Source of the DNA: a bacterium
Lineage (GTDB): Bacteria; Patescibacteriota; Minisyncoccia; UBA6257; WO2-44-18
NCBI GenBank assembly: GCA_030689595.1
Contig: JAUYHP010000008.1
Coordinates: 32,589 to 96,588, forward strand
Length of the DNA: 64,000 nucleotides
Direction: 5' to 3'
Shown: in pieces, positions 19,912 to 63,322 of the stretch
Numbering within the stretch: position 1 is the stretch's first letter
Layout of the letters: every line of letters begins with the position of its first letter
Position numbers and translations under genes: made by a program
Notes under the pieces: model-generated
Databases searched by the model: none
What the model was told of the DNA's origin: nothing
The model's input: only the letters and a program-made list of their open reading frames with translations

Positions 19912-19912
19912 T

Positions 19913-22259: not shown

Positions 22260-22275
22260 GATTTAAAATTAAGAT

Positions 22276-30005: not shown

Positions 30006-30041
30006 CAACATTCTCACATTCTCGAGAATATGAGGTTGAGA
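30006..30041. repeat. Degenerate copy of the 36-bp palindromic element, followed by a second 18-bp palindrome (GTTGAGAGATCTCTCAAC)
   Basis: CAACATTCTCACATTCTCGAGAATaTGAGgtTGaG; the left arm is intact, and the right arm has about four mismatches relative to the copies at 60843 and 62971. Confidence 0.7.
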
Positions 30042-36226: not shown

Positions 36227-36841
36227 ATGCAAAAAGACTATCAACCAGAAAAATTAAAAATTGATAAAGATCTTCCAGGCTTCAGCCTTAAGGGCATCAA
36301 GGAGCATTTTAAACTTTATGAGGGTTATGTCAAAAAAACTAACGAGATCCAAAAGAAAATTGAAGATGCCGATAAGTCAGAGGCCAATGCTGTTTACAGT
36401 TATATCGGCGAATTGAAGCGCGAAGAAGTCTTTGCCATAAACGGCATTAAACTTCATGAAATTTATTTTGATCACCTTGGCGGCGATGGAAAGCCAAGTG
36501 GTGAGCTAGTAAAAATGATCGAAAGAGATTTTGGCTCGGTTGATAAATGGCGCGAAGATATGATCGCCACCGGCTTAAGTGCTCGTGGTTGGGCTATAAT
36601 GGCCTACGACCTTAAAGATAGCCAGCTCCATAATTATGGAGCTGATGCCCAAAACATTGGCGCAGTCTGGGGCGCTATTCCTATTATAGCCCTGGATGTT
36701 TATGAGCACGCTTATTTTATGGATTATGGAACCGATCGAAAATCTTATGTTAATGCCTTTTTTGAAAATCTGGATTGGAGCGTCGCCAATGCCATGATGA
36801 CTAAATATGTCACGCCATGGGAAAAGACAAAGAACCAGTAA
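36227..36841 (+). CDS. sodA: Fe/Mn superoxide dismutase
   Basis: LDVYEHAYFMDYG (the D-x-W/Y-E-H-A-Y motif) and the conserved His ligands (EHF..., LHEIYF). The start is taken at MQKDY; the longer upstream frame overlaps the tRNA. Confidence 0.8.
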   Translation: MQKDYQPEKLKIDKDLPGFSLKGIKEHFKLYEGYVKKTNEIQKKIEDADKSEANAVYSYIGELKREEVFAINGIKLHEIYFDHLGGDGKPSGELVKMIERDFGSVDKWREDMIATGLSARGWAIMAYDLKDSQLHNYGADAQNIGAVWGAIPIIALDVYEHAYFMDYGTDRKSYVNAFFENLDWSVANAMMTKYVTPWEKTKNQ

Positions 36842-38070
36842 AAAATTCGGAGCGAGAGGATGTTGAAACCGAAAAGGATCTACTACAGGGCGGTGAAGCT
36901 TCGATAATAAAATTGATAGATGCCTTAATCGAAAGCGCCTATACGGCTCGCGCTTCTGATATTCATATCGATCCGGAACAGGACCAAGTCCGAGTGCGCT
37001 TCAGAGTTGACGGAACCTTGCATGACACTTTTGTCTTTTCAAAAGACTCCCATTCAGAAATCATCACTCGCCTGAAAGTACTTTCTGGCTTACGCACTGA
37101 CGAACATCAAATGGCCCAAGATGGACGTTTTAAAATTTCCGTCAGTGACGGTCTTTTTGTAGATGTACGCCTTTCCATAGCTCCAACCTATTACGGGGAA
37201 AATGCCGTGATGAGATTATTGGCACAAAAATCTGAAACAGAATTTACTTTAGAGGCCTTGGCATTTTCCGAAAAAAATCAAAAAATAATTCAAAAATCAA
37301 TTAAAAAACCTTATGGCATGATTTTGGCCACTGGGCCCACCGGCTCTGGCAAAACCACCACTCTGTACACGATCATAAAAATGTTGAACAAGCCAGAAAC
37401 TTCCATCATCACCATAGAAGATCCCATTGAATATTCGGTTGATGGCGTTGAGCAAATTCAAGTTAACACACAAACAGGGCTGACCTTCGTCAGCGGTCTA
37501 CGCTCGATCTTGCGACAAGATCCTAATATCATCATGGTCGGTGAAATACGCGATCAAGAAACAGCTGGCATTGCCATTAATGCCGCTTTGACAGGTCATC
37601 TTTTGCTTTCAACCCTACACACCAACGACGCCGCCACAACATTGCCGCGGTTGGTAGATATGAAGGTAGAGCCGTTTTTAATTGCATCCACCGTAAATAT
37701 TGCCATGGGCCAGAGATTGCTACGCCGTGTTTGCCAAGATTGTAAAATCGAAAAAAAGATTACAGCCACCGACATTAAGAGTTTGTCCACAGCGTTACGC
37801 CCAGGAGCAATAAATGAAGGTGCTATTTTCTATGCTGGCGAAGGTTGTGATGTGTGTGACCACACCGGCTACAAAGGACGCATTGGAGTACATGAGGTTA
37901 TGGAGGTTACGGATGCTATCAGAGAAGCTATAATGAAAAGAGCCGACGCCGCCATGATTCAAGAATTAGCAATCAAAGAAGGCATGGTGCCTATGCTTGA
38001 AGACGCGCTTCAAAAAGCATTGGCCGGGCTAACCACGATCGAAGAAATTTTACGCATTATACATGAATAA
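36817..38070 (+). CDS. pilB: Type IV pilus/T2SS assembly ATPase (GspE/PilB family), minimal form
   Basis: Walker A ATGPTGSGKTTTLY, Asp/His boxes and a C-terminal tetracysteine (CQDC...CDVC). Only about 417 aa. Confidence 0.85.
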   Translation: MGKDKEPVKNSEREDVETEKDLLQGGEASIIKLIDALIESAYTARASDIHIDPEQDQVRVRFRVDGTLHDTFVFSKDSHSEIITRLKVLSGLRTDEHQMAQDGRFKISVSDGLFVDVRLSIAPTYYGENAVMRLLAQKSETEFTLEALAFSEKNQKIIQKSIKKPYGMILATGPTGSGKTTTLYTIIKMLNKPETSIITIEDPIEYSVDGVEQIQVNTQTGLTFVSGLRSILRQDPNIIMVGEIRDQETAGIAINAALTGHLLLSTLHTNDAATTLPRLVDMKVEPFLIASTVNIAMGQRLLRRVCQDCKIEKKITATDIKSLSTALRPGAINEGAIFYAGEGCDVCDHTGYKGRIGVHEVMEVTDAIREAIMKRADAAMIQELAIKEGMVPMLEDALQKALAGLTTIEEILRIIHE

Positions 38071-39133
38071 TTTTTTAAAGAACTTATCTCTTAGCGTTTC
38101 TTTGCAAGAGAAAATCATTTTTGCTAAACATCTGGCTATCATGATAAAAGCTGGCATGCCACTCTTGGATGCAATAAACATGTTGCAACAACAAACTAGG
38201 TCGCGCTCCATGTCTAAAATTTTAGAATCAGTAGTCAAAGATGTCAGCAACGGCCAATTTCTTTCAAAAAGTCTAGAAAAATATCAATCGGTTTTCGGCG
38301 ATTTGTTTATTCAACTTATCAAAGTTGGCGAAACCGGTGGCATACTGTCAGAAAATTTAGTTTATTTGGCTGACGAGCTTAAAAAGAAAGCCGAACTTCG
38401 TCGCAAGGTGGTGGGCGCATTAATTTATCCATCAATTATTTTATTAGCCACCCTGGGTATAGCCGGTTTTTTGACCATATATATATTCCCCAAAATAATC
38501 CCGGTATTTTCTAGTCTTAAGGCGGAATTACCGATCACCACCAAAATATTGATAAGCATCAGCAATCTGTTAACCCAACATGGTGGGCTCGCTATGCTGG
38601 CCTTGTTAATAATAGTAATTGTCATATGGTTTTTGCTCAAAGTTCGTACCATTCGTTTTTATTGGCATCGAGTATTGCTGTCGCTACCAATTGTTGGCAA
38701 AATAGCTCGGAGTGTTAATATGGCCAACTTTTCCAGAGCCTTAGGATTGCTGTTAAAAAGTGATGTAAAAATCGTTAACGCTATTAATATCACTGCTGGC
38801 ACATTGTCTAATCTGGTTTATCGCGATGAACTAGCTAAATCAAGCTCAAATATAGAGAAGGGTGAATATATATCCAAATATTTAATGACTCGCGGAGACC
38901 TTTTCCCAATTATGTTTGCTAACATGATTGCGGTAGGGGAGCGCACAGGAAATTTAAGTGAAACGCTGTTATATTTGGCCGAATTTTATGAAAACAGCGT
39001 GGACGATCTCACTAAAAACTTATCAAACGTTTTAGAGCCAGTGCTAATGGTTGCTATGGGTGTCATCGTCGGATTCGTCGCGATTTCTATCATTACCCCG
39101 ATCTATGGTGTCACCCAAACCCTTAGCCGCTAA
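38063..39133 (+). CDS. pilC: Type IV pilus platform protein (GspF/PilC family)
   Basis: Two T2SSF repeats and three TM segments. Confidence 0.85.
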   Translation: MNNFLKNLSLSVSLQEKIIFAKHLAIMIKAGMPLLDAINMLQQQTRSRSMSKILESVVKDVSNGQFLSKSLEKYQSVFGDLFIQLIKVGETGGILSENLVYLADELKKKAELRRKVVGALIYPSIILLATLGIAGFLTIYIFPKIIPVFSSLKAELPITTKILISISNLLTQHGGLAMLALLIIVIVIWFLLKVRTIRFYWHRVLLSLPIVGKIARSVNMANFSRALGLLLKSDVKIVNAINITAGTLSNLVYRDELAKSSSNIEKGEYISKYLMTRGDLFPIMFANMIAVGERTGNLSETLLYLAEFYENSVDDLTKNLSNVLEPVLMVAMGVIVGFVAISIITPIYGVTQTLSR

Positions 39134-51210: not shown

Positions 51211-52482
51211 ATGAATAAATTCTTACAAATTTTTAAAATTCCTGATCTGCGCAAAAAGATATTTATAGTTGTCTTTTTGCTTTTGGTTTTCAGATTATTG
51301 GCCGCCATACCAACTCCGGGCATCGATGCAGATAGATTAAAGGGCTTGCTAGACTCCAGTCAATTGTTGGGATTTTTTAATATATTTTCCGGTGGCTCCT
51401 TGGCAAATCTTTCCATAATGATGTTGGGTGTATCGCCCTATATCACCGCTACCATCATCATGCAGCTATTGACCATGATTTTCCCGAAATTAAAGACTCT
51501 TTATTATGAAGAGGGGAATGCCGGCCGAGCTAAATTCAATAGATATTCGCGCTATATAACGGTGCCCTTGGCTGCCCTGCAGGGTTATGGCTTTCTAAAT
51601 CTTCTGATCAGCCAACAAGTTTTACCGCCTCTACCCGGGCTGGATATGTTGCGTAACGTTTTAGTAATAACCGCCGGCTCCATGATTCTAATGTGGCTTG
51701 GCGAACTTATGAGTGAACAAAAAATCGGCAATGGCATTTCTTTAATCATCTTTGCCGGTATCGTCAGCGGCCTACCTCAAATAGTGAGATCATTAGTTGT
51801 GTCCTATGACCCAACTAATGTGCCGGTGTATGTTGCCTTCGCTATATTGAGCGTCATCATTACTGCTTGCGTGGTATTCATAAACGAGGGTGAACGAAAA
51901 ATACCAGTTTCTTATGCCAAAAGAATCAGAGGTAGTCGCATGTACGGCGGATCGTCTAGCTACTTGCCGCTGAAAGTAAACCAAGCCGGCGTTATCCCAA
52001 TCATCTTCGCTATTTCAATTTTGTTATTCCCACAGTTTTTTGCCCAAATTGCCTCAGCCGTATCGCCTGGTTTTGGAGCCACTTTGAATGATTGGGTCAA
52101 TAGAATATTTAGCAACCAAGTTATTTATGGTCTGATATATTTCGTATTAGTTGTTGTCTTCACTTATTTTTATACGGCCGTTACCTTCGACCCCAAAGAA
52201 ATAGCCAAAAACCTCCAGCGCAGTGGGGGGTTCGTCCCGGGCATTAGGCCGGGTGATCCAACTGGAGAATTTTTACAAAAAGTTATTTATCGTATCACTT
52301 TGTTCGGCGCCCTCTTCTTGGGTGTAGTTGCGGTTTTGCCTAACATTACACAAATATTAACCGGCATACAAACTTTATCCATCGGTGGTACAGCCTTGCT
52401 GATTGTTATTGCTGTGGCCCTAGAAGTTATGCGCCAAATTGACTCTCAATTGGTTATTCGAGAATACGAGGGGATACAGTAA
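51211..52482 (+). CDS. secY: Preprotein translocase SecY
   Basis: Ten TM helices and the GGSLANLSIMMLGVSPYITATII and QAGVIPIIFA blocks. Confidence 0.95.
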   Translation: MNKFLQIFKIPDLRKKIFIVVFLLLVFRLLAAIPTPGIDADRLKGLLDSSQLLGFFNIFSGGSLANLSIMMLGVSPYITATIIMQLLTMIFPKLKTLYYEEGNAGRAKFNRYSRYITVPLAALQGYGFLNLLISQQVLPPLPGLDMLRNVLVITAGSMILMWLGELMSEQKIGNGISLIIFAGIVSGLPQIVRSLVVSYDPTNVPVYVAFAILSVIITACVVFINEGERKIPVSYAKRIRGSRMYGGSSSYLPLKVNQAGVIPIIFAISILLFPQFFAQIASAVSPGFGATLNDWVNRIFSNQVIYGLIYFVLVVVFTYFYTAVTFDPKEIAKNLQRSGGFVPGIRPGDPTGEFLQKVIYRITLFGALFLGVVAVLPNITQILTGIQTLSIGGTALLIVIAVALEVMRQIDSQLVIREYEGIQ

Positions 52483-52496
52483 AAATTCTAAACAAA

Positions 52497-52530
52497 GTCC
52501 TCTGGCGCCCCGCCTCGGAGGACTTTTTTA
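52497..52530 (+). terminator. Rho-independent terminator after secY, the first of four GC-rich hairpins
   Basis: AGTCCTC...GAGGACT stem then TTTTTT. Further hairpins lie at about 52600-52625, 52668-52692 and 52710-52740. Confidence 0.6.
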
Positions 52531-52754
52531 CTAGACGTCTTAATTTTAATTACGACTAATATAATATCGCCGGTGGGCGATTCTTATCTAGCAAAAAAGC
52601 CAGGTTCCTCCGATGACTATCGGAGGGGTTTTTACTACGTTGTCCAAATTCTATTTGGACGCATAATAATCGCCCCGCGGTGGCGGGGCACATATCGGAG
52701 CAAAACCCCTGGTGTCCCGCTTCGGCGGGACGGTTTTATGTTACAATTATAATT

Positions 52755-53147
52755 ATGGAACCAGTAAAAAGTTTTGAATTTAGCCACGAATCCCTAGAAA
52801 AGGACATGGAGCGTCTGGCTGGCGAGGTTCAAGAAAGGGCAGCAGCCGAGTCGCCAACAGCTCACAAGGAAGCTATTAAATCCACCGTAGGAGAGCAGAT
52901 AAAGAAAATGGCACCCGTCGCTCCAGACCCCAACGAGCACCAATCTTCGACCGTGCCAAATTATCTCCAAGCAGCCGACAACTCGACTAAGTTACAAGTT
53001 GAACAGCTGATAGAATTAGCTTGGCACAAGGGGTTGCCTGCGGCGATTAAGGAGGCTAAAAAGGCTGGGCCTTTATATGTGGACGCCCTACACGACGCTT
53101 TAACCGATAAACTTTACGACGAATTCAAAAGACGTAAGTTGTTATGA
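52755..53147 (+). CDS. Hypothetical soluble protein, first gene of a three-gene operon
   Basis: About 130 aa from MEPVKSF. Its stop overlaps the next start (ATGA). Confidence 0.45.
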   Translation: MEPVKSFEFSHESLEKDMERLAGEVQERAAAESPTAHKEAIKSTVGEQIKKMAPVAPDPNEHQSSTVPNYLQAADNSTKLQVEQLIELAWHKGLPAAIKEAKKAGPLYVDALHDALTDKLYDEFKRRKLL

Positions 53148-55477
53148 AAATAGCGCTAGTAGTTATTTTTGCTGTAATATTTGTGGCAATCGTAATAGCT
53201 ATTATTTTGTATGCTAAGAAATCATCGTTGCGCAATCTTTTAAAAAAATCTTTAAATCTTAAGCTGCTATCTATCAGGCTGCCTCAGCCCGTTGAGAAAG
53301 AGCAACAAAAATTTCAAGATGAAATTAATACTTCTGGTCAATTAATAAGCATTTTAGCCGGGCTTAAGCAGCCATTTACCTTTGAAGTTGCTAAACCAAA
53401 CAACAGCGAAGAAATCCATTTTTACATTGCAGTCCCACAAGATTCTGTAGAGTTTACCTCTAGGCAAATACAAGGCCTCTGGAGCGATGCTCAGATAGAC
53501 CATATAGATGATTATACGATTTTTAATACGACTGGCGCCGCCGGAGTGGCCTATCTTAAGCAAAAGAGTCACAGCGCTATTCCAATTAGAACTTTTGCCG
53601 AGGCTGAAAACGATACCTTTTTACCAATCATCAGCAACCTAACTAAAGTTGAGGGGATAGGTGAGGGGGCCGCCATCCAAATAGTTGTTAAGCCAGCGCC
53701 AGATTCGATAAAAAACAATGTTGATAAAGTTATTAATAAATTGCGCCAAGGAATGTCTCTTAAAGACGCACTAGCTGGCAAAGTCATCAAAACCAACAAA
53801 GACAAAAACGCCCCAGTCCAACCAAGGGTTGTTGATGAAGAGTCGGTTAAAATATTGAGTAGCAAGATAGCTAAGCCGATATTTTCAGTTAATGTTCGCC
53901 TGGCAACTTCAGCGTCCAGCCCAGAAAAAGCAGATGCACTATTAAATGGTTTAGCGGGTTCTTATAATCAATTTTCAGCCCCAGGCAGAAATGAATTTAA
54001 AATAGTCAGCCCCAAAGATAGCAGAGAATTAATATATCAATTCGTTTTCAGGCAACATGATAATCGCCAGAATATGATATTGGGCGCCGATGAATTGGCG
54101 AGTATTTTTCATTTACCAACCAGTGCTACCAGAATTCCTAAAATTCATTGGCTGAAATCTAAAGAAGCCGCACCGCCGCCGAATTTACCAGATGCAGGCG
54201 TAACGATAGGAAAAAGCACTTTTAGAAATGATGACAAATTGGTGAAAATCACCGACGATGATCGTCGACGACATTTATATGTTATCGGCCAAACTGGCAC
54301 TGGTAAATCTAGTCTATTAATTAATATGGCCGTTGACGACATCCGCCAAGGCAAGGGCGTCGCCATAATAGACCCTCACGGCGACTTAATCGACGCGGTA
54401 TCTGGCCTTATTCCAGCTGAAAGACAAAAAGATGTTATCGTTTTCGACCCTGGCGATATCTCTAAACCATTGGGCCTTAACATGCTTGAATATGACGTTA
54501 ATCGTCCCGAAGAAAAGACCTTTATTGTCAACGAAATGCAGAGCATTTTTAATAAGTTATTTACGGCCGAAACTATGGGGCCTATGTTCGAACAATATAT
54601 GCGCAATGCCTTGTTGCTATTGATGGAAGATATGCCACACTCTCCTTCGACGCTAACGGAAGTGCCTCGTATTTTTACTGATGCAGATTTCCGCCGAGAA
54701 AAAACTAGTCGCGCCCTCAACCCGACAGTCGTAGATTTTTGGGAAAAAGAGGCCGCGAAAGCAGGCGGCGAAGCATCTCTAGCCAACATCACCCCCTATA
54801 TAACTTCTAAATTTAACAATTTCTTGGCTAACGATTATGTGCGGCCGATTATTGGCCAAGTGCGGTCGTCGTTTAATTTCCGCAAGGTGATGGATGATGG
54901 CAAAATATTGTTGGTCAATCTTTCCAAGGGGCGCATCGGTGATATAAATGCTGGACTTTTAGGTATGATTGTCGTCGGTAAATTGTTGATGGCGGCTTTA
55001 TCGCGAGTAGATCTAGCCCAAGAACAGCGTCGCGATTTTAATTTATACATCGATGAGTTCCAAAACTTCACTACCGATTCTATCGCCACGATTTTATCAG
55101 AAGCTCGTAAGTATAAATTAAATCTTGTCATTGCTCACCAATTTATTGGTCAGCTAACTGAAAAAATTCGTGATGCTGTTTTTGGCAATGTGGGCTCGAT
55201 GGCTGTGTTTAGGGTCGGCGCTGACGACGCTGAGTTTCTAGCTAAACAATTTGATCCAGTATTTTCTAAAACCGACCTCATCAACATTGACAACTTCAAC
55301 GCCTACCTTAAATTATTGATTGCCGGTCAAACATCCAGGCCATTTAATATGATAACTATTCCACCGGAGCAGGGTGACGAAAAAATTAAAGAAGCTTTAA
55401 AAGAATATTCACGCAACACCTACGGCCGTGATAGGGGAGAGGTAGAAGCCGAAATACTTAAGAGATTAAGGGCCTAA
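53144..55477 (+). CDS. Membrane-anchored TraG/VirD4/TrwB-like (type IV coupling protein / FtsK-HerA superfamily) ATPase
   Basis: N-terminal TM helix and a roughly 400-aa unique middle region. Walker A YVIGQTGTGKSSLL is followed by IIDPHGD. The C-terminal YIDEFQNF...ARKYKLNLVIAHQFIGQL...GNVGSMAVFRVGADDAEFL follows the TraD/TraG Walker B-to-C-terminus pattern. Confidence 0.65.
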   Translation: MKIALVVIFAVIFVAIVIAIILYAKKSSLRNLLKKSLNLKLLSIRLPQPVEKEQQKFQDEINTSGQLISILAGLKQPFTFEVAKPNNSEEIHFYIAVPQDSVEFTSRQIQGLWSDAQIDHIDDYTIFNTTGAAGVAYLKQKSHSAIPIRTFAEAENDTFLPIISNLTKVEGIGEGAAIQIVVKPAPDSIKNNVDKVINKLRQGMSLKDALAGKVIKTNKDKNAPVQPRVVDEESVKILSSKIAKPIFSVNVRLATSASSPEKADALLNGLAGSYNQFSAPGRNEFKIVSPKDSRELIYQFVFRQHDNRQNMILGADELASIFHLPTSATRIPKIHWLKSKEAAPPPNLPDAGVTIGKSTFRNDDKLVKITDDDRRRHLYVIGQTGTGKSSLLINMAVDDIRQGKGVAIIDPHGDLIDAVSGLIPAERQKDVIVFDPGDISKPLGLNMLEYDVNRPEEKTFIVNEMQSIFNKLFTAETMGPMFEQYMRNALLLLMEDMPHSPSTLTEVPRIFTDADFRREKTSRALNPTVVDFWEKEAAKAGGEASLANITPYITSKFNNFLANDYVRPIIGQVRSSFNFRKVMDDGKILLVNLSKGRIGDINAGLLGMIVVGKLLMAALSRVDLAQEQRRDFNLYIDEFQNFTTDSIATILSEARKYKLNLVIAHQFIGQLTEKIRDAVFGNVGSMAVFRVGADDAEFLAKQFDPVFSKTDLINIDNFNAYLKLLIAGQTSRPFNMITIPPEQGDEKIKEALKEYSRNTYGRDRGEVEAEILKRLRA

Positions 55478-55536
55478 TATTGACGCCTTATATAAAATTT
55501 GCTAATCTGTTAGAAGCTCATTTCAAGGAGGTTATT

Positions 55537-55791
55537 ATGAGCCGAGAAAAGCTACGCAGAGCATTGTGCGGCCGTAAGATTATTTTTGTTAATGTTAATG
55601 ACGACGGGAATGATTTTATGACCTTAACCCTTGATGACGGCTCTAAAATTGTTTTCACTCATGGGGCAGATCCTGGTCAGCCAGTTTGGACCAAGATTGT
55701 TAAACGTAACCTCGATGAGCATGATGATTATGTTTGTACTGATGAGTTGTGGTCTACCAGCGGTGGCAGTGGGCGCGTAGGGATGCTTTGA
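55537..55791 (+). CDS. Small hypothetical protein, third gene of the operon
   Basis: AAGGAGG RBS before the ATG at 55537; 84 aa. Confidence 0.4.
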   Translation: MSREKLRRALCGRKIIFVNVNDDGNDFMTLTLDDGSKIVFTHGADPGQPVWTKIVKRNLDEHDDYVCTDELWSTSGGSGRVGML

Positions 55792-55835
55792 GAGGACAGC
55801 TCTGACCCGTGTTTCCGGTTCGGGATTTTAAAATA

Positions 55836-55873
55836 AAATTAATGGCGTGACTTAGGTCACGCCATTTTTATTA
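55836..55873. terminator. Bidirectional terminator
   Basis: AAAATAAAATTA-ATGGCGTGAC-TTAG-GTCACGCCAT-TTTTATTA. Confidence 0.7.
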
Positions 55874-55876
55874 AGA

Positions 55877-56659
55877 TTATTTTAAATAGCCAATTTTCTT
55901 CAGCCAATATTCATTGTCCCACTCCCACAATTTCTTGGCCGCCAAAAAAGCTTCAAAATCTTCTTTCCAATAGGGATCTTCTTTTATAGCTGTTACGCCA
56001 GTTAATGGGCCCCATTCATGTTGATCTTCTGGACAAACCTTTAGCCCACGAATTGAGGGATATGGTTTGCGAATTTTTTCTCGCCCGCCCTTAGGGCGCA
56101 AGGTTGATTTACATTTTGGACAAGTTTTAATCTGATCAACTCTCAATATCCATCTTGTTTGTGGATCAACTACCGAAGGATCTTTAGTCAGAGCATCCAT
56201 ATAAGCCGCTGTTTGCAAATTATAATCTCGATAAAAATCCATCGAAGTTTTAATATCCATAACGCCAAATTTACCGCCAATCAGAGCCATAGCATCAATC
56301 GTGCCGGCATAGCTATGATCTAGATTCATAATTCGCTTTTCAATTGATTGCGGATCAACTTGAATATTATTCCGATCAATAAACTCTATACACGAATTAA
56401 CTGCCGGCGCTATGCTTTCATCAATATCTCTCTGTTTTCCCAAAAGAATATCTTGAACGGTTTCGTGTACTAGCGTGCCTTCTTCGGCCGATTTTTTTGT
56501 TTGCGCTTCTGCCGCCGCAAAACTAGTAGCGGAAGCATAATATCTATATAAAGCCGGTTTAGATTTTACGCCAATGATCTTAGTAACACGCGGATACCAA
56601 AAACCGTTGATATCATAACCGCATTGTTCTTTAAATTGTTCGGGCGTGGAGTAGTACAT
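55877..56659 (-). CDS. PD-(D/E)xK nuclease-family protein (Cas4/RecB-like fold) with a Cys-rich C-terminus
   Basis: HETVQD..., then D-x13-MDIKT (the D...D/E-x-K arrangement: GTIDAMALIGGKFGVMDIKTS). CPKCK...C...C may be a zinc ribbon. Confidence 0.5.
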   Translation of the reverse strand: MYYSTPEQFKEQCGYDINGFWYPRVTKIIGVKSKPALYRYYASATSFAAAEAQTKKSAEEGTLVHETVQDILLGKQRDIDESIAPAVNSCIEFIDRNNIQVDPQSIEKRIMNLDHSYAGTIDAMALIGGKFGVMDIKTSMDFYRDYNLQTAAYMDALTKDPSVVDPQTRWILRVDQIKTCPKCKSTLRPKGGREKIRKPYPSIRGLKVCPEDQHEWGPLTGVTAIKEDPYWKEDFEAFLAAKKLWEWDNEYWLKKIGYLK

Positions 56660-56842
56660 TAAAAAATTATTAAGAAATTAATCTATTTAGCCATTAAGTA
56701 ATAAATAAATTGTAGTACGTAGCAGTCGTTAAGTACAGGATGTTGTTGTGCGTGATGCTAAAATTTTAGAAGACGCTAACACGGCCTTAAAGGATGTGTC
56801 TATTAAAGGAGTCGTTTATTATATACTCCGCGGACACAGATT

Positions 56843-56903
56843 AGCGCTGCTTTCACATGTGAAAGCAGCGCTGCTTGACGTATTGATGGGTTATTGTTAT
56901 CAT
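56843..56903 (+). promoter_or_regulatory. 30-bp perfect palindrome abutting a promoter-like -35/-10 pair
   Basis: AGCGCTGCTTTCACATGTGAAAGCAGCGCT (56843-56872), immediately followed by TTGACG, a 17-bp spacer, and TATCAT. Confidence 0.45.
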
Positions 56904-56947
56904 ATTCAGAAGTTCTTTGACGTTCACCTGATAAGGAGCATAGAGCG

Positions 56948-57106
56948 ATGAACAGAAAAACGCTGGACATGATTACCATTCTCGTTGCCTCTCTTGGCGT
57001 GTGTGTGGCACTTTTCATTATTGCCACCATGCCCGGCAATGAGACTGTAGGACTGTGTCTTATTGGGGGAGCCCTAACCGCGGCACTTCTCACGATACTG
57101 ATTTAG
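56948..57106 (+). CDS. Unannotated 52-aa two-TM hydrophobic peptide (toxin- or holin-like small protein)
   Basis: AGGAGC RBS and the ATG at 56948. The sequence is MNRKTLDMITILVASLGVCVALFIIATMPGNETVGLCLIGGALTAALLTILI. It falls below the 60-aa cutoff of the ORF track. Confidence 0.4.
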   Translation: MNRKTLDMITILVASLGVCVALFIIATMPGNETVGLCLIGGALTAALLTILI

Positions 57107-57436
57107 ACGCGCAACACCAGAAAAAAGTTTTAAGGCGGCTGGCCATCTTCCCGATGGCAGCTAATGTCTAGTATTTAGGTGATTTTGACGATATTCAGAA
57201 GGCCAAGCTGGTTGCCGCTAAAAAAGGCACTGGTTGTACCGGAAGCGCTATTTTTGCCGCAGGTGTATATGACCATGCGGGTAAACAGATCCATTTCTTT
57301 CGCCGTAGACCGTCTACAATTGCTAAGGATTAAGCTTGATAAATATAGCCGCCATCTTTATTAATAAAGTTGGCGGTTTTTTCTTTTTACGCATTTATCA
57401 ACAGGGTAGGGCTACCAAATATTTGCTCGATATAAT

Positions 57437-57468
57437 AAAGTGAGTGTAAGGGATATTATACTCACTTT
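57437..57468. other. 12-6-12 inverted repeat, candidate tyrosine-recombinase core site
   Basis: AAGTGAGTGTAA-GGGATA-TTATACTCACTT, with 11 of 12 positions matching between arms, 75 bp upstream of the recombinase gene. Confidence 0.4.
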
Positions 57469-57542
57469 GGTATATGTGAGAAAATAATGGTAAAATTGGT
57501 AAAAAGCACTCCCCTAACACTATTTTGTAGAAATTATCAATT

Positions 57543-58514
57543 ATGACAAAAGCTGACAGCGATAATAAAAAAGTTACAATTCTTCCTCATCTAGATGACT
57601 TTTTATTACACCTACAGAGTAATAACTATTCACCCAAAACCGTATATAATTACGAACGCGACCTAATAGTATTTGATGGCTTCCTACAGGATGACCTAGG
57701 CCTAAAAGACTTCCAAGATGCCTCAAAACAGGCTCTAGAACGGTATAAGGCGTATCTGATGTCTACTGACCGTAAAACAGCCCGTAAAACGCAAAATAAG
57801 GCCAATTTAGGGGCCTATTCACGCAACCGACACCTATCAGCCCTCAGGAGCTATCTTAAGTACTTAATTGACGGGGACTATAAGACCCCGATCGTCCCAG
57901 AGAACATAAAGCTAATCAAAACTGACAAAAAGATAGCCAAAGTGGCCGAGCTGCAAGACTTAATCAAATTGATTGAATCCCCCACCAAATTTGAAAAAAA
58001 TCCAATCATAGCTAAGCGCAATCGCGCCATGTTAGAAGTTTTATTTGCTACCGGTTTACGTATTTCCGAATTAGTTAATCTCAAAAAAAATCAGATCGAT
58101 AGGGAAGGCAAGATTTTTGTTTTGGGCAAAGGCAAAAAAGAAAGATTTGTTTATTTGACCCCTAGAGCCATAAAATATTTAAAAATATATTTAACCGAAC
58201 GCAACGATGACTCCCCTCACCTATTCATTTCTTATCGCGGCAAAAGAGCGCCAACGCAAGATCATCATGTGTCGCCAAATTATTTACAAGAAAAAATAAA
58301 AAAATACCGAGAGATTCTTGGCATCAATGTGCCAACTAGCGCCCACTCACTCCGCCACGGCTTTGCCACCTATCTGGCCGAAAAAGGCGCCAGCCCTGCC
58401 GCCATTCAAATACTTTTGGGTCACGAGTCTTTAGACACTACCACTCGCTATGTCCACGCCTCGCATCGCTTCGCCAAAAAAACTCACCAGAAATTTCATC
58501 CACTGAAAGATTAA
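57543..58514 (+). CDS. Tyrosine site-specific recombinase (XerC/XerD/integrase family)
   Basis: C-terminal HSLRHGFAT...LLGHESLDTTTRYVH (R-H-R-Y catalytic set), and N-terminal SAM-like core-binding domain. Confidence 0.85.
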   Translation: MTKADSDNKKVTILPHLDDFLLHLQSNNYSPKTVYNYERDLIVFDGFLQDDLGLKDFQDASKQALERYKAYLMSTDRKTARKTQNKANLGAYSRNRHLSALRSYLKYLIDGDYKTPIVPENIKLIKTDKKIAKVAELQDLIKLIESPTKFEKNPIIAKRNRAMLEVLFATGLRISELVNLKKNQIDREGKIFVLGKGKKERFVYLTPRAIKYLKIYLTERNDDSPHLFISYRGKRAPTQDHHVSPNYLQEKIKKYREILGINVPTSAHSLRHGFATYLAEKGASPAAIQILLGHESLDTTTRYVHASHRFAKKTHQKFHPLKD

Positions 58515-58550
58515 AATAAAAATCCCATAGTAGTGTGAATAATGGTATAT

Positions 58551-58580
58551 AAAAAAAAACCCGAACCACTTGGTTCGGGG
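58551..58580 (-). terminator. Rho-independent terminator for the minus-strand gdh-ychF-adk-map transcript
   Basis: On the minus strand: CCCGAACCA-AG-TGGTTCGGG then TTTTTTTTT. Confidence 0.65.
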
Positions 58581-58690
58581 TTGATGCTACTTGGCCGAGG
58601 TTGTCATCAGAAACAAGCTCAACCAGTGCCGTTTCTGGTGCCCCTTCTGGAGCACGACGACACCTGCCCACTGCTCCACCGCCTTTCCTG

Positions 58691-58795
58691 TCTGCCAGGC
58701 AAGGCCGAGGAACTGAACGACATCCCCGCCAGCTTTCTGCCAGGCAAGGCCGAGGCCCTGCACGGCATCCGCACTAGCACTCTGCCAGGCCATGA
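58691..58795. repeat. GC-rich 45-bp tandem repeat (about 2.3 copies)
   Basis: CTGCCAGGCAAGGCCGAGG recurs at 58691 and 58736, and a partial copy at 58781. Local GC is about 60%, against a roughly 42% background. Confidence 0.6.
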
Positions 58796-58901
58796 CTACC
58801 TCCAATACAACGGTGGACAGTGAAGTGATTAAACTTTGTTTAGGTACTGGGGCTAGTATATCATAAATATGTGAGGTTTGTCAAGGGGGACAAGTATTAA
58901 C

Positions 58902-59660
58902 TCACTTAGTTAATATCTCGACACCATTTTTAGTTATGGCTACTGTATGTTCAAAATGAGCCGATAAGCTACCATCGGCAGTAGCATAACTGTCGTCGTC
59001 TAGTTGGATAACTTCAGAGGTGCCAATGGCTACCATGGGTTCTATGGCAATCACCAAGCCAGGCTCAATTTTAAAACCACTCCCCTTTTGGCCCTCATTG
59101 AAAACTGATGGCTCCTCGTGCAGTTCTTTGCCAATTCCATGACCAGTTAACCCCTCCGATATATGCAATCCTTGAGCTTTAACATAACTACTTATGGCAT
59201 AGCCAATATCGCCCAACTTATTACCTACTTTTGCGGCGGCCACTCCCCTGTTCAATGCTTCGCGGGTAGTGTCAATTAATTTTTGTGCCTCAATAGAGAT
59301 TTCACCTATCGGTACAGTCCAGGCGGCATCGGCATTATAGCCATCGTAATTAACGCCAAAATCTAATTTCAAGATATCACCTGGCTTCAATAAATGCTCT
59401 CGCGGCACACCATGAACAATAACCTCATTGACTGAAGCGCAGATAGAACAGGGGTACGGCTTGATGGCGCCATAAGGCTGATAATTTAAGAATGACGGTT
59501 TGGCGCCGGCTTTTTCTATAAGATTTCTGGCGATAGTATCTAGATATTTTAATTTCACACCCGGCTTAGCCAATTCCAATATCTGCTTGGCGGTTGCGGC
59601 CAGAATCCTCCCGGCCTTTCTCATAATTTCAATCTCTTCTGGGGTTTTAATATGAATCAT
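58902..59660 (-). CDS. map: Methionine aminopeptidase type I
   Basis: Metal ligands are in the expected context (D...D...H...E...E; HGIGKELHEEP). Confidence 0.9.
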   Translation of the reverse strand: MIHIKTPEEIEIMRKAGRILAATAKQILELAKPGVKLKYLDTIARNLIEKAGAKPSFLNYQPYGAIKPYPCSICASVNEVIVHGVPREHLLKPGDILKLDFGVNYDGYNADAAWTVPIGEISIEAQKLIDTTREALNRGVAAAKVGNKLGDIGYAISSYVKAQGLHISEGLTGHGIGKELHEEPSVFNEGQKGSGFKIEPGLVIAIEPMVAIGTSEVIQLDDDSYATADGSLSAHFEHTVAITKNGVEILTK

Positions 59661-59679
59661 ATATTTTTATAATCCCACT

Positions 59680-60369
59680 CTAAAGTTTTAGTTTCTTGGC
59701 AACAGAAGCATGCACCTTAAACGGCAATGGCATGCCATTAACTTTTGTGATTTTGTAGCCACGCTTTTTTAATCCAGCCAAAATAGGAAAAGTGCGCTCT
59801 TGATACTCTTTTATCCTTGTCTTGAAAACTGATGGATTGTCCACTGTACGCTTGATCAACTTACCACCACATAACGGACAAGTTTTGTGTTTATGTAATG
59901 CATCGCTATATAAAACTGCCGTAGCACACACCGAACAAACCATCCGATATTTATTTCTTTTGATAGAGGCGTTGGGGTCAATATCTAAGAAAACTGGATA
60001 AATGTTCTGCTTGCCATAAGCTTTCTCCAAAACGCGCACTAGGCCAGTATGTTTATTATCGCCAAAGGCCTCAAACATTGTTCGTGGAGAACCACTAAAT
60101 ACAATATTAAATCCGGCCCTAGCTATCTCCTTAGCTTTGTTGGCCGTAACTTTTAATACAAAACTTGGCGTCATTAAAGCGCCGGAGTCAAATAGCTTGC
60201 CCTCACGTTGAATAATTCTATTTTTTTTATTACTCGGGTCGTGGACTAACTGCTCCAAATAGCGGCCAGTATCAAAATGGGTAAAGCCTTTTCGCCCAGT
60301 CAAAAGATTGGCTTGAGTGCCTTTCCCTGCCCCCGGTGGGCCATAAAATATAACTGCTATCTTCGCCAT
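59680..60369 (-). CDS. adk: Adenylate kinase with Zn-lid
   Basis: GPPGAGKGTQA P-loop; lid CSVCATA...CPLCGG. Confidence 0.9.
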   Translation of the reverse strand: MAKIAVIFYGPPGAGKGTQANLLTGRKGFTHFDTGRYLEQLVHDPSNKKNRIIQREGKLFDSGALMTPSFVLKVTANKAKEIARAGFNIVFSGSPRTMFEAFGDNKHTGLVRVLEKAYGKQNIYPVFLDIDPNASIKRNKYRMVCSVCATAVLYSDALHKHKTCPLCGGKLIKRTVDNPSVFKTRIKEYQERTFPILAGLKKRGYKITKVNGMPLPFKVHASVAKKLKL

Positions 60370-60409
60370 GTTCTATTTATTATATCTCTAATTGGATGAT
60401 TAACCAATT

Positions 60410-61417
60410 TTATCCGTGTCGGATCTCCATCACGTCCCCATCCTCAGCGACATATTCTTTGCCTTCGATTCTTAAAAAGCCCTTTTGGCGCGCTTGTGCC
60501 CAAGAACCGACTTCTAATAATTTTTGCCAATTTACAACCTCGGCTCGGATAAACTTCTTTTCAAAATCAGTATGGATAACTCCGGCGGCTTGCGGCGCTT
60601 TACTCCCCTGTCTGATTGTCCAGGCCCTGGTCTCATCTTTGCCAGTAGTGAAGAAGCTTATGAGCCCCAAGATCTCATACGACTTTTTGATTAGGGCCGA
60701 AAGATCTACGGATTGTGATAGGTCAGCAACTATATAATCGGCTCCAGAAGTTTTAATTTTTTCTATTAATTCTGGTGGCACATCGCCTTCTTGGCCATTT
60801 AATAAATACAGCTGTTTTTTAGTGGTCAAAAGGCTAAGACCCAACATTCTCACATTCTCGAGAATGTGAGAATGTTGCCACAAAGGTTCGCCCTTTTCTA
60901 AAAGCGACCTGGTCTCCCGTATGGTCTCTAAATCTTTCTTGGCTTGTTTATCGCCCGTCTTGGCCTCGCCCTCAACTCGCTTTAAAACTTTTTCAACGGT
61001 ATCCAAGTCTTTAAGAGCCAGCTCGGTATTGATTATTTCCATGTCCCTAATTGGATCAACTGAATTTTCTACATGAATAATCTCGCCGCTTTGAAAACAG
61101 CGCAAGACCATGATTATGGCATCAACCTCTCTAATGTGTGATAAAAACTGGTTGCCCAAACCTTCGCCTTTATTGGCCCCCCTAACTAAACCCGCAATGT
61201 CATAGAATTCTACAACCGCAGGGATTTTTTTGGCCGATTGGCTAAGCTCTGCCAATTTATCCACTCGCTCATCAGGCACAGGCACTATGCCGATATTGGG
61301 GTCAATGGTGGCAAATGGATAATTGGCAATATTAATCTCCAAATCTGTTATAGCCTTAAAAAGCGTCGATTTCCCGACGTTTGGCAGCCCGACTATACCG
61401 ATTGAAATATTAGCCAT
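60410..61417 (-). CDS. ychF: Ribosome-binding ATPase YchF, carrying an in-frame 36-bp palindromic insert
   Basis: [15 protein letters not shown]1 motif and a TGS-like C-terminus. Codons [13 protein letters not shown] are encoded exactly by the palindrome at 60843-60878. Confidence 0.85.
60843..60878. repeat. 36-bp perfect palindrome, intragenic copy
   Basis: CAACATTCTCACATTCTCGAGAATGTGAGAATGTTG. Confidence 0.9.
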
Positions 61418-61525
61418 AGATTATGATACTTTAGCAGAAAATATTGAATAAAAAAACTCCCATCCGCGCTTATGGATGGGAGTTGGGGTGCTACTTGTCA
61501 TATGGGAACCCGCTTACATGATTTG

Positions 61526-62893
61526 TCAAGCTAAATGCTTCGCTTCGAAATGCGGCTTAGCGCGTTCGATAGACACAACGTAAGCAGCTTTGCGAAGATT
61601 TGTATCGAGTTGTTCGGCGCGACTAGTTACTTGCGTGGTAGCCTTATGCAACATATCACTCATAGCTGCCAATACTGCATCTTTGTCGGCCATTGGAACT
61701 CGGTCATCACGAATATTAACATTATGCGCCCATTCGAAATATGACACCACTACGCCACCGGCATTGGCCAAAATATCTGGCACAACAATGACGTTGTGTC
61801 TTTCTAAAATATCGTCAGCACGATTAGTCGTCGGCCCGTTAGCGCCTTCCAAGACAAATTCACAATTATCACCGATCACATCGGCATTGTTCTTATCAAT
61901 CACATTTTCTAAAGCCGCTGGTACAAAAACGTTGCACTTCAATGACATAAACTCCTCATGATTGATGCCAGAGGCATCAGCATAGCCATTAACACTGCGT
62001 AGTGTATTGTTGGGATTGTCATAAACGTATTGCCAAAGCTTATCAACATCAATTCCGCTCGGGCTATGGATAGCTCCATGCTCGTCGGAAATAGCAATAA
62101 CTTTATAACCGGCTTCTACAGCAAACTTGGCAAAATGCGCGCCAACATTGCCGAAGCCCATTACTTTAACCTCGCAACCATTTCTATCTTTGCCATAGAC
62201 ATCCAAAATCTTATTAAGCACTTGCACCAAGCCATAGCCAGTAGCTTCGGTTCGGCCCGGGATGCCGTCCAAATCTTCGCCAATTGGCTTACCAGTAACA
62301 ACTCCGGCAAAGCGAGCATCTTCGCGAGAACGACGCAGCCTAGCATAATACTGGCGGATCCAGTTCATAACCGTAGCATTAGTGCCAATATCAGGTGCTG
62401 GCACATCACGAAATGGCCCCAGAATATTTCTTTCATTCATAGCCTCAACTAAGGCCTCGGTAACCTTTTTGAGTTCTTGCGCGGAAAGTTCACGCGGATT
62501 GACGGCTACGCCGCCCTTGGCGCCACCCCATTTAATACCTAATAGCCAACACTTCAAGCTCATTTCCATAGCGTGGCCTTTCATCATCTCAACATTTACA
62601 GCCGGATGATACCTTAAACCGCCTTTGTGTGGCTTATCAGTGTGCGGCGATCTATGCCAAACTCGCACAGCTCGAAACTCTCTCAAGCTACCATCGTCCA
62701 TACGAACTTCAATATCGGACGCCCATTCCATTTTCACGCTACACAACTTATGTACCAGCCAATCATCTAAGTCTAAGATATTGGCCGCATCTTTAATGCG
62801 ATCAATGATATGATAGACATCGTTGTTTTCTTGAGCCATAGCAGACTCCCATTGCCGCGCCGTAGCCATGCCTGCCGGTAGGTAGTATGGCAT
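61526..62893 (-). CDS. gdhA: NAD(P)-specific glutamate dehydrogenase
   Basis: KWGGAKGGV (the GGxKGG lysine motif) and the GFGNVGAHFA Rossmann motif. The start is possibly an internal M. Confidence 0.85.
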   Translation of the reverse strand: MPYYLPAGMATARQWESAMAQENNDVYHIIDRIKDAANILDLDDWLVHKLCSVKMEWASDIEVRMDDGSLREFRAVRVWHRSPHTDKPHKGGLRYHPAVNVEMMKGHAMEMSLKCWLLGIKWGGAKGGVAVNPRELSAQELKKVTEALVEAMNERNILGPFRDVPAPDIGTNATVMNWIRQYYARLRRSREDARFAGVVTGKPIGEDLDGIPGRTEATGYGLVQVLNKILDVYGKDRNGCEVKVMGFGNVGAHFAKFAVEAGYKVIAISDEHGAIHSPSGIDVDKLWQYVYDNPNNTLRSVNGYADASGINHEEFMSLKCNVFVPAALENVIDKNNADVIGDNCEFVLEGANGPTTNRADDILERHNVIVVPDILANAGGVVVSYFEWAHNVNIRDDRVPMADKDAVLAAMSDMLHKATTQVTSRAEQLDTNLRKAAYVVSIERAKPHFEAKHLA

Positions 62894-62970: not shown

Positions 62971-63018
62971 CCCACACAACATTCTCACATTCTCGAGAAT
63001 GTGAGAATGTTGTGTGGG
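62971..63018. repeat. 48-bp perfect palindrome (the 36-bp element extended by 6 bp on each side), preceded by a GGGGGT...ACCCCC hairpin
   Basis: CCCACACAACATTCTCACATTCTCGAGAATGTGAGAATGTTGTGTGGG, in the gdh upstream region. Confidence 0.9.
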
Positions 63019-63133: not shown

Positions 63134-63322
63134 ATGTATATAGGCGACCAATTGGGAGACGTAGTTGCTGCCAATAACGCCGGCTGGGTATCAGTCGCCT
63201 TTACCAAGGGCCTACACACTCGCGATAAGCTGGCCGAAGGACAACCCGATCATTGGATCAAAAAGCCTTCTAATATTTTGGGCCTACCGATTTTGAAAAA
63301 AGAAACTACGGATGACAAGTAA
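63134..63322 (+). pseudogene. C-terminal fragment of a HAD-superfamily hydrolase
   Basis: Only HAD motif IV (MYIGDQLGDVVAANNAGW) is present; the 62-aa ORF has no N-terminal catalytic motifs. Confidence 0.4.

Follow-up and report, generated by a model that had tools for sequence, protein, structure and literature searches.

A probable old inversion of native DNA behind secY and a candidate dif site beside xer in a Patescibacteria chromosome

In bacteria, secY is generally followed by adk and map, and the canonical gene order of the spc and alpha operons is secY-adk-map-infA-rpmJ-rpsM-rpsK-rpsD-rpoA-rplQ. The 64-kb stretch of DNA analysed here (the window; contig JAUYHP010000008.1) comes from a Patescibacteria (Paceibacteria/Parcubacteria) chromosome in which this order is not kept. 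In the window, secY is followed by p130, a gene for a small acidic protein, and by a gene for a membrane-anchored ATPase of the coupling-protein type, and map and adk are found only beyond a nuclease gene and a tyrosine recombinase gene, on the opposite strand. The question raised by this locus is how such a block came to lie between secY and adk-map. An earlier reading, made from the letters alone and referred to here as the sequence-only reading, proposed an integrated element, or its remnant, that had inverted or displaced the distal spc genes. Comparison with related genomes makes it rather probable that the block is native, vertically inherited Patescibacteria DNA that was flipped by an old inversion of ~7.9 kb, and that the recombinase is the chromosomal Xer enzyme, encoded beside a candidate dif site. 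Taken as a whole, the locus is an ordinary evolutionary rearrangement together with a dif/Xer module that was not found described for the phylum.

Gene order around secY in the window and in related loci

All counts given for the window cover its 64 kb. Related loci carry L numbers; the full set consists of 213 loci, and the window proteins were mapped onto 86 of them by tblastn. Open reading frame (ORF) calls, profile searches and repeat searches of the window recovered all of the features listed here and further below at the positions given by the sequence-only reading. The genes and sites that carry the argument are the following:

51211-52482, plus strand: secY, last gene of the S10-spc ribosomal-protein operon, with the genes for L15 and S5 upstream; left flank, outside the proposed inversion
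52483-52754, plus strand: spacer between secY and p130, 272 bp, hairpin-rich; proposed left inversion junction
52755-53147, plus strand: p130, a 130-aa ORF for a small acidic helical protein
53144-55477, plus strand: VirD4/TrwB-type membrane-anchored ATPase, 777 aa, with Pfam matches
55841-55866, no strand assigned: bidirectional intrinsic terminator with an 11-bp stem and T-runs on both strands, common to the convergent ATPase operon and nuclease gene
55877-56659, minus strand: PD-(D/E)xK-like (Cas4/RecB-like) exonuclease, 260 aa, with a CxxC element, convergent to the ATPase
57438-57467, no strand assigned: dif-like site AAGTGAGTGTAA-GGGATA-TTATACTCACTT, 30 bp, inside the inverted repeat 57430-57475
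57543-58514, plus strand: xer, Xer-type tyrosine recombinase, 323 aa, Pfam E = 9e-34
58902-59660, minus strand: map, Pfam Peptidase_M24
59680-60369, minus strand: adk, Pfam ADK
60370-60409, no strand assigned: spacer between adk and ychF, 40 bp; proposed right inversion junction
60410-61417, minus strand: ychF, Pfam match; right flank, outside the proposed inversion
61526-62893, minus strand: gdh, Pfam match; right flank, outside the proposed inversion

The window order is secY, p130 and ATPase rightward, then nuclease leftward, xer rightward, and map, adk and ychF leftward; the minus-strand position of map-adk with ychF and gdh (58902-62893) is as the sequence-only reading had it. The same order was found in L002/L007, L003/L171, L087 and L088. 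In the sister clade (L004, L010 and L017), ychF, p130 and the ATPase gene are read in one direction, and the genes for the nuclease and a Mur ligase (with p148, encoding a 148-aa transmembrane (TM) protein), map, adk, secY and the genes for L15 and S5 are read in the other. Thus secY-adk-map is contiguous in these three loci and converges on the ATPase operon. The sequence-only reading had asked whether relatives keep secY-adk contiguous and lack the block. The sister clade does have secY-adk contiguous, but the block is not absent there, the ATPase and the nuclease being present too. The tblastn mapping of the 86 loci showed that ychF is located upstream of p130-ATPase, on the same strand, in 17 diverse loci, which include Harrisonbacteria, Wolfebacteria and other Paceibacterota. 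It is only in the window clade that secY-p130 and ychF-adk take the place of the adjacencies secY-adk and ychF-p130. The outer flanks are collinear, with the ribosomal-protein operon on one side and the genes for YchF, a thiolase, a 3-hydroxyacyl-CoA dehydrogenase and an acyl-CoA dehydrogenase on the other (L004, L087), and ychF has the orientation of the uninverted relatives. The swapped adjacencies together with the collinear outer flanks point to a single inversion of ~7.9 kb, with its junctions at 52483-52754 and 60370-60409.

A neighbour-joining (NJ) tree of the ATPase places the window with L002, and this pair with L003, in an inverted clade whose sister is the uninverted group of (L004, L017) and L010. 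The SecY protein of the window is 85% identical to that of L002, 71% to that of L003 and 70% to that of L004. The next outgroups, L019, L039, L040 and L042, have ychF-p130-ATPase, in two of them (L040 and L042) together with the convergent nuclease. The adjacency secY-adk is taken as ancestral because of its general conservation in bacteria, and ychF-p130 because it is kept in the outgroups, so that outgroup parsimony suggests the window layout to be the derived one. It is improbable that the window layout is instead ancestral and lineage-wide, with no rearrangement and with Paceibacteria that never had secY-adk contiguous at this place. Four independent relatives do show the exact order of the window, but in the sister clade secY-adk-map is unbroken and is followed by the same ATPase and nuclease genes, this order is the general bacterial one, ychF-p130-ATPase is kept in the 17 diverse loci, and both old adjacencies are broken and swapped in the window clade only. 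The sequence-only reading had named a lineage-wide layout as the result that would count against a rearrangement; what was found is one layout in the closest relatives, secY-adk-map in the sister clade and ychF-p130-ATPase in the outgroups.

The window comes from a metagenome-assembled contig, and an inversion produced by the assembly, through a chimeric contig of a metagenome-assembled genome (MAG) or a mis-join in a repeat, has also been considered. This is practically out of the question. Assemblies made from other samples and with other assemblers show both junction types again (L002/L007, L003/L171, L087, L088), the Logan contig L001 matches the stretch from p130 to xer base for base, and the junctions are free of repeats. 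The layout is repeated in Logan SRR13727534, GCA_030698695.1, ERZ1292623, ERZ27254749 and ERZ5996431, and its recurrence in independent assemblies of five samples shows that it did not result from mis-assembly.

In the proposed history, the ancestor common with the sister clade would have had the ribosomal-protein operon, secY, adk, map, (p148, Mur ligase) and nuclease rightward, converging on a leftward ATPase-p130 pair with ychF upstream. One inversion of ~7.9 kb, with breakpoints between secY and adk and between p130 and ychF, would flip everything between them and give secY-p130-ATPase rightward, followed by nuclease to map-adk-ychF leftward. The 3' modules of the two convergent transcription units would swap their upstream partners, and each gene would stay co-oriented with its new upstream neighbour. 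The inversion was probably tolerated because every gene keeps its direction relative to that neighbour. A TATAAT box is found a few bases before the p130 start codon in both layouts; the p130-ATPase pair would keep this box as its own, and three terminator-like hairpins would separate the pair from secY and may insulate it transcriptionally. The interior between nuclease and map would have been remodelled later, the Mur ligase gene being lost from the interval and the dif-xer module gained, and the window strain would in addition have small units of its own, left of dif and right of xer.

A single inversion does not account for all that the loci show. In the sister clade, the interval between map and nuclease holds the Mur ligase and the 148-aa TM protein; in the window clade it holds the dif-xer module. 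L002, L003 and L087 have a homologue of the 148-aa protein (a 158-165-aa TM protein) in front of dif-xer, in the orientation opposite to that expected from the flip. The window is without this gene, and 770 bp of strain-specific DNA are found in its place.

Several points weigh against the inversion as described. More than one event is required, since the orientation of p148/p164 is wrong for a simple flip, the Mur ligase is missing and dif-xer is absent from the uninverted loci. The polarity of the inversion rests on parsimony and on one NJ tree of a single protein, the ATPase identities are close (65% to L003 vs 63% to L004), and the outgroups are without the ribosomal-protein operon beside the ATPase. 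The convergence of secY-adk-map and the genes after it on the ATPase could go back to one origin in the common ancestor or to separate ones. Additionally, a repeat search found no repeat or site at the breakpoints, and this search together with a comparison of the junction sequences found no inverted repeat common to both junctions. No link between p130-ATPase and the mechanism of the inversion was found.

The inversion can be compared with rearrangements of other kinds. Terminus- or origin-centred inversions likewise flip a segment between two convergent gene blocks and keep the directions of genes relative to their neighbours. Unlike these, the inversion proposed here is very small (~7.9 kb), swaps the 3' ends of two operons and is old, being common to genomes that are just 65-76% identical in the ATPase. 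Rearrangements of the S10-spc-alpha cluster are also familiar, and here it is the very conserved secY-adk-map adjacency that is broken. In L002/L007, a second, distant tyrosine recombinase (8201-9013; 270 aa, 25% identical to the xer product) adjoins adk where the window has ychF, which indicates that the right flank of the inverted segment is itself variable.

The part of the canonical order that follows map was lost from this place separately. Motif and tblastn searches of the window did not find infA to rplQ, and among the related loci these genes are absent from all except the distant L076, so the search for their location that the sequence-only reading had called for produced a cluster in that one locus and none in the window. 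The break before infA is older than the inversion because the uninverted relatives are also without these genes after map. In L076, a distant member of the Paceibacterota, infA-rpmJ-rpsM-rpsK-rpsD-rpoA-rplQ (19338-22308) lies ~7 kb downstream of the ATPase with no secY-adk-map between, so that a separation of the alpha operon from the spc operon is also seen elsewhere in the class.

The ATPase, the nuclease and the question of a mobile element

The ATPase matches the Pfam families T4SS-DNA_transf (PF02534; 34.1 bits, cut-off 20.1) and TrwB_AAD_bind (PF10412; 23.7 bits, cut-off 20.5), which bears out its description as a TraG/VirD4-like membrane ATPase. One predicted N-terminal TM helix is followed by a DUF8128 domain of ~330 aa and a P-loop domain, with the Walker A motif GQTGTGKS at residues 382-389 and an invariant D637-E638-F639. 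Sequence matches in the PDB are TrwB and DotL, limited to the P-loop region. The AlphaFold model, built from a 12-sequence alignment, is poor, with a mean pLDDT of 64 and values below 50 in the ATPase core. A Foldseek search with this model returned VirB4/TrwK over the full length at a low TM-score, and then DotL and Cag-beta; model and search support membership of the VirB4/VirD4 superfamily and no finer assignment.

Homologues of the ATPase number 5,243 at E <= 1e-10, of which the best 120 are 59-76% identical. Among the matches listed, those with a named taxon are from Patescibacteria, Parcubacteria or Paceibacterota, with the one exception of P0078 ('Spirochaetia bacterium'). A scan of one genome per species found the gene in at least 585 genomes. 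A survey of VirD4-like type IV coupling proteins (T4CPs) reported 5,713 homologues in 2,918 Patescibacteria genomes, of which just 148 are near virB4, and its authors proposed that the Patescibacteria T4CP gene may have been exapted (PMC12102498). The ATPase is a conserved 'orphan T4CP' of Patescibacteria. It shares with VirD4, TrwB, TraD and the orphan T4CPs the membrane anchor, the P-loop, the two Pfam domains and the Walker A/B motifs, and, like the orphans, it is encoded away from virB4 and relaxase genes (PMC12102498). Unlike the T4CPs, it has one predicted TM helix and the ~330-aa DUF8128 domain, an obligate p130 partner and a widely conserved ychF neighbour; it is without the context of a relaxase or a type IV secretion system (T4SS), no such partner being present in the window, and its low-confidence model aligns over the full length with VirB4/TrwK as well. 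A full-length match to the phage-derived family phrog_5156 (E = 6e-76) suggests either viral or proviral contigs that carry the same gene or Patescibacteria DNA that was misassigned.

The stop codon of p130 overlaps the ATPase start by 4 bp (ATGA). In most of the 86 loci, tblastn placed p130 immediately before the ATPase, and the two form a near-universal pair. The p130 protein has no match in Pfam, NCBIfam, PADLOC or PHROG. The fixed partner and the conserved ychF neighbour narrow the hypotheses on the role of this orphan T4CP-like ATPase. One of these is that p130-ATPase is a stand-alone membrane DNA translocase for chromosome handling, either an FtsK-like partner of the neighbouring Xer/dif or a DNA-uptake pump, in which case the block would be the core of an undescribed terminus-processing locus. 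The ATPase gene is 2 kb from the dif-like site in the window and the superfamily is related to FtsK/HerA, but in most other Paceibacteria the gene is not linked to xer, and this role is decidedly improbable. Elsewhere in the window, at 36817-39133, a T2SSE ATPase gene (type IV pilus/type II secretion, E = 2.7e-120) and a gene for a T2SSF platform protein lie upstream of the EF-Tu/S10 operon; these may be relevant to DNA uptake.

The nuclease at 55877-56659 on the minus strand is convergent to the ATPase, as the sequence-only reading described, and it is so in both inverted and uninverted genomes. It matches the PHROG exonuclease family phrog_298 (E = 7.5e-22) and has the motifs D122 and D135-I-K137. 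Its score for Pfam PDDEXK_1 is 19.1, below the cut-off of 22, and the matches to Cas4 and MGME1 are weak. The nuclease homologues in L002, L003, L004, L010, L017, L040 and L042 are 57-80% identical. The PADLOC matches (mad8, HerA and Cas4) are weak, and a defence system, which was considered on their account, finds no support in them.

A coupling-protein-like ATPase, a nuclease and a tyrosine recombinase in one block, with strain-specific DNA next to a dif-like site, resemble the contents of an integrative and conjugative element (ICE), an integrative and mobilizable element (IME) or a dif-integrating element that exploits Xer (IMEX). It is nevertheless very improbable that an ICE, an IME or a remnant of one inserted after secY and inverted or displaced adk-map. 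The matches of the ATPase to T4CP families and, over its full length, to phrog_5156, the match of the recombinase to the 'phage integrase' Pfam family and the strain-specific DNA on both sides of dif-xer (56660-57430 and 58552-58884, the latter compositionally foreign) would fit such an element. Against it, Patescibacteria homologues number in the thousands for each of the p130-ATPase pair, the nuclease and the recombinase, with 60-87% identity among the matches listed, and the ATPase-nuclease pair stands beside the same housekeeping genes in the uninverted relatives. Distribution is not patchy: p130-ATPase is present in essentially all of the 86 loci, and the nuclease in inverted and uninverted relatives. 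The GC content of the block is 0.36-0.48, compared with ~0.42 for the window, and deviates only at 58.58-58.83 kb, so that composition is typical apart from an orphan unit of 0.3 kb.

The marks of integration were likewise missing. Searches for direct repeats or att sites at 52.5 kb and at 58.9 or 60.4 kb returned just short, low-identity chance matches, with none flanking the block. The window holds no second full or half dif-like site, and the idea of an IMEX, in which the strain-specific DNA would have integrated at dif, was set aside on that ground. The sole tRNA gene in the window is at 36.1 kb, none is near the block that could serve as a target, and Rfam at gathering thresholds returned only this tRNA-Gln. 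No ORF in the window is a candidate for a relaxase or VirB4, the ORFs of at least 500 aa being an FAD oxidase, BipA and the ATPase only, and no relaxase or T4SS genes, and with them no mating pore, were present in the gene maps read for the related loci. Of the sequence-only reading, the inversion of adk-map relative to secY is retained and the element as its cause is not; its alternative of a fixed DNA-processing module comes closer to the truth for the ATPase and the nuclease. In Patescibacteria, a trio of coupling protein, nuclease and integrase next to a broken ribosomal operon can mimic an ICE, where here it is most probably native core DNA and an old inversion.

The Xer-type recombinase and the candidate dif site

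The recombinase matches the Pfam families Phage_int_SAM_1 (E = 2.8e-11) and Phage_integrase (E = 9e-34). It aligns end-to-end with the NCBIfam models XerC (8e-57), XerD (2e-53) and XerA (1e-51), and XerS is weaker (2e-27). Its scores are below the equivalog cut-offs of all four (XerC 192.8/335, XerD 181.5/330, XerA 176.1/220, XerS 95.7/267), and the enzyme is therefore Xer-type but not a member of one named subfamily. The best PDB matches are XerD, XerA and XerH. All six catalytic residues are present: R173 (GLRISE), K198 (GKGKKER), H268 and R271 (HSLRH), H294 (LGH) and Y303 (TTRY). There are 5,588 Patescibacteria homologues, and the best 120 are 62-100% identical. By these sequence features, the recombinase is classed as a chromosomal Xer enzyme and not as the integrase of a mobile element.

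The tyrosine recombinase of the sequence-only reading came with a candidate core site, and an inverted repeat is indeed located at 57430-57475, upstream of xer. Within it, the dif-like site features 12-bp inverted arms around an asymmetric 6-bp centre, GGGATA, 75 bp upstream of the xer ATG, and directly adjoins a promoter-like site of xer (57467-57496). The same site is found upstream of xer in L002, L003 and L087, where the rest of the intergenic DNA is fully diverged, and one arm position differs symmetrically between genomes (G...C vs C...G). Diverged copies are present upstream of xer in L089, L091 and L213. A scan of metagenome contigs for GAGTGTAA-N6-TTATACTC gave at least 120 arm matches. 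Among the matches listed, 86 of 120 have a centre of the form G[GA][GAT][AT][TG]A. At 79 of these 86 sites, xer starts at a median distance of 38 bp and reads outward from the site; contig edges account for the other 7. Thus xer lies beside all 79 testable sites with a dif-like centre among the matches listed, and none had room for xer without having it. Of the 34 matches with other centres, 31 are without xer and appear to be chance occurrences. From 81 distinct sites, the consensus AACTGAGTGTAA GGGATA TTATACTCAGTT was derived, and its symmetry reaches 4 bp past the arms that were fixed in the scan.

The orientation of the site relative to xer varies, with 70 sites in one orientation and 9 in the other; the window is in the minority, and both orientations include sites with the GGGATA centre. 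With all sites turned the same way, 22 of 24 loci have a higher GC skew in the left flank than in the right, and the minus strand carries 81% of the coding bases in the right flank, whichever side xer occupies. In L089, L091 and L213, xer is located exactly at the switch from a plus-strand to a minus-strand gene block. The cumulative GC skew of the window peaks at 55-57 kb, in a genome where skew largely follows the coding strand. In the window, the dif-like site is single copy.

The architecture of the site, its tight linkage to xer and a polarity that is tied to the chromosome rather than to the gene are the grounds on which it is read as dif. By analogy with known systems, the site is suggested to be a candidate chromosome dimer-resolution site in a terminus-like convergence zone. 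Most likely, Xer would bind the near-palindromic 30-bp site upstream of its own gene and resolve chromosome dimers there. Some points weigh against this. The 24 loci of the polarity comparison are not phylogenetically independent, and GC skew tracks the coding strand (it is negative, for example, over the minus-strand block at 21-30 kb), so that skew alone cannot place the terminus. The single-copy status of the site and the number of xer paralogues are visible for 64 kb only. Finally, the candidate dif site overlaps the promoter region of xer and could be an operator.

A purely regulatory role, in which the 30-bp palindrome would be an operator or promoter element for xer autoregulation, or an RNA hairpin in the xer leader, and not a recombination site, has a minor though appreciable probability. 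The site is always 0-150 bp upstream of the xer start and adjoins or overlaps promoter-like hexamers, and it would fold stably (z = -6.45). The 70 vs 9 split in orientation relative to xer, which follows the strand polarity of the flanks instead, argues against an operator, and a conserved asymmetric 6-bp centre is unexpected for a hairpin loop. Moreover, arms of 11-12 bp that end in ...TAA and TTA... around 6 bp are the architecture of dif, and a dif site beside the gene is known from other systems (PMC5357621). Operator and recombination site are not mutually exclusive roles.

Single-recombinase Xer systems keep dif beside the xer gene as one module (PMC5357621). The candidate dif-xer pair resembles XerS/difSL of streptococci and lactococci, XerH/difH of Helicobacter and Campylobacter and some archaeal XerA/dif systems in having one xer gene that adjoins an inverted-repeat site (PMC5357621), with arms of ~11 bp, a short asymmetric centre and a convergence- or terminus-like position. 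It differs from them in several respects. The protein is closer by sequence to XerC, XerD and XerA than to XerS and XerH, and the site has a centre of 6 bp, a length shared with classical and archaeal dif, whereas that of difSL is 11 bp. The site has a sequence of its own, and some relatives have a second xer-like gene in tandem. This second gene is found just beyond the dif-adjacent xer in L146, L168, L191, L192, L197 and L100, and the inference of a single recombinase may not be valid for the whole class.

Full-text literature searches returned no paper, by title or abstract, on a Xer/dif system in Patescibacteria, the candidate phyla radiation (CPR) or Parcubacteria. The comparison yields, as a by-product, a testable candidate dif site for Paceibacteria, AACTGAGTGTAA-GGGATA-TTATACTCAGTT, directly upstream of a conserved xer gene. 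If validated, it would provide a landmark for the replication terminus in tiny, mostly uncultured genomes, of use in closing MAGs, in assembly checks and in origin-to-terminus growth estimates. It would also be a further example of a single-recombinase Xer module and a place to seek mobile elements that exploit Xer.

Two further observations concern the surroundings of xer. In the more distant Paceibacteria L089 and L091, xer is beside the genes for glutamyl-tRNA synthetase (GluRS), an M23 peptidase, DnaB and RecR. In the window, M23 peptidase, RecR and DnaB are encoded at 18379-22259, ~36 kb from dif-xer, which suggests that older rearrangements separated these genes from dif-xer in the window lineage. 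Additionally, in L089 (6387-6857) and L090 (2274-2744) the diverged dif-like site is separated from xer by a LAGLIDADG-type ORF that shares 4 bp with the start of xer; the dif-xer module may have received a homing-endonuclease-like insertion here.

Strain-specific DNA, the secY-p130 spacer and other palindromes

The smaller features of the block are the following:

55480-55791, plus strand: third ORF behind the ATPase gene, 103 aa from TTG, or 84 aa from ATG at 55537; doubtful as a gene
56843-56872, no strand assigned: perfect 30-bp palindrome that adjoins the promoter-like site TTGACG-17-TATCAT with TG
56948-57106, plus strand: small ORF of 52 aa; two TM helices predicted, AAGGAG as Shine-Dalgarno sequence
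57349-57382, plus strand: terminator-like hairpin after the 52-aa ORF
58552-58884, minus strand: GC-rich (59% GC) strain-specific transcription unit with a promoter-like site, a 68-codon ORF and a terminator

Of the 'three-gene operon' that the sequence-only reading placed after secY, the conserved p130-ATPase pair is borne out and the third member is strain-specific. Outside the window, the third ORF turned up only in the identical contig L001; L003 has no room for it, and searches of Pfam, NCBIfam, PADLOC and PHROG assigned it to no family.

The spacer between secY and p130, which was described as hairpin-rich and ~270 bp long, is 272 bp long and has a predicted fold of -104 kcal/mol (z = -6.55; 0 of 200 shuffles). 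On the plus strand it contains three units of a hairpin and a T-run: the secY terminator at ~52497-52529, and units at ~52606-52635 and ~52713-52740. Its sequence is not conserved in L002 and L003, where the spacers are 122-139 bp. Within 52540-52745, a unit made up of a -10-like box, a 5' hairpin whose loop is GGTG and a terminator hairpin is found twice in a row, and the two units could be small RNAs (sRNAs) or stacked insulating terminators. A tandem duplication of two sRNA-like units was tried as an origin for the spacer and rejected, since the pairwise alignment of the units is weak and gapped. At E <= 5, Rfam returned only sub-threshold terminator-like matches for 52.4-59 kb and no family for the spacer or the GC-rich piece.

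The DNA between the nuclease gene and the inverted repeat around the dif-like site (56660-57430, 770 bp) is strain-specific and matches only L001. Both the palindrome and the small hydrophobic peptide of the sequence-only reading are present in it, at 56843-56872 and as the 52-aa two-TM ORF. This ORF has no family match in Pfam, PADLOC or PHROG; it may encode a small toxin-like or membrane peptide.

On the other side of xer, the sequence-only reading saw a GC-rich tandem-repeat remnant. The tandem repeat is there (45 bp x 2.2 at 58691-58790, 66% GC inside a stretch of 59% GC), but it appears to belong to a self-contained mini-gene on the minus strand and not to an evident remnant. The promoter-like site, TTGACA-18-TATACT with TG at 58884-58855, is the best in the region; downstream of it come a GGAGG Shine-Dalgarno sequence, the start codon ATG at 58793, the 68-codon ORF (58793-58587) and a strong intrinsic terminator (58579-58552). 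The GC contents of the ORF at the first, second and third codon positions (GC1/GC2/GC3) are 0.65/0.45/0.75. The W-rich motif GLGLAWQ is repeated in the product and reflects the 45-bp tandem repeat. Among 5.8 billion proteins, the sole match of the product is the identical GenBank hypothetical protein Q8O87_01420. A 93-aa ORF in the plus frame gave just two low-complexity matches, to giant repeat proteins. The GC-rich DNA had no match in the 213 loci, in PLSDB plasmids, INPHARED phages or IMG/VR, and L002, the nearest relative, does not have it. The piece gives the impression of an orphan unit that was acquired recently or arose anew.

Another perfect palindrome, with the half-sites CAACATTCTCACATTCTC and GAGAATGTGAGAATGTTG and a length of 36-48 bp, occurs in three copies in the window, where none is expected by chance, and is absent from all 213 related loci. 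The copy at 60839-60877 falls in the most variable part of the ychF coding sequence, where it encodes 13 residues. A second copy (62971-63018) is ~80 bp upstream of gdh, and a third (30009-30038), with 3 mismatches, is ~40 bp upstream of a gene for a YkuD L,D-transpeptidase. Rickettsia palindromic elements sit in frame within genes, and the palindrome could be an operator or a small palindromic repeat that is able to sit in frame in a gene. Just past gdh, a 62-aa ORF (63134-63322) resembles, by eye, only the C-terminal end of a HAD-type hydrolase (GDxxxD...NAG) and may be the remnant of a truncated gene.

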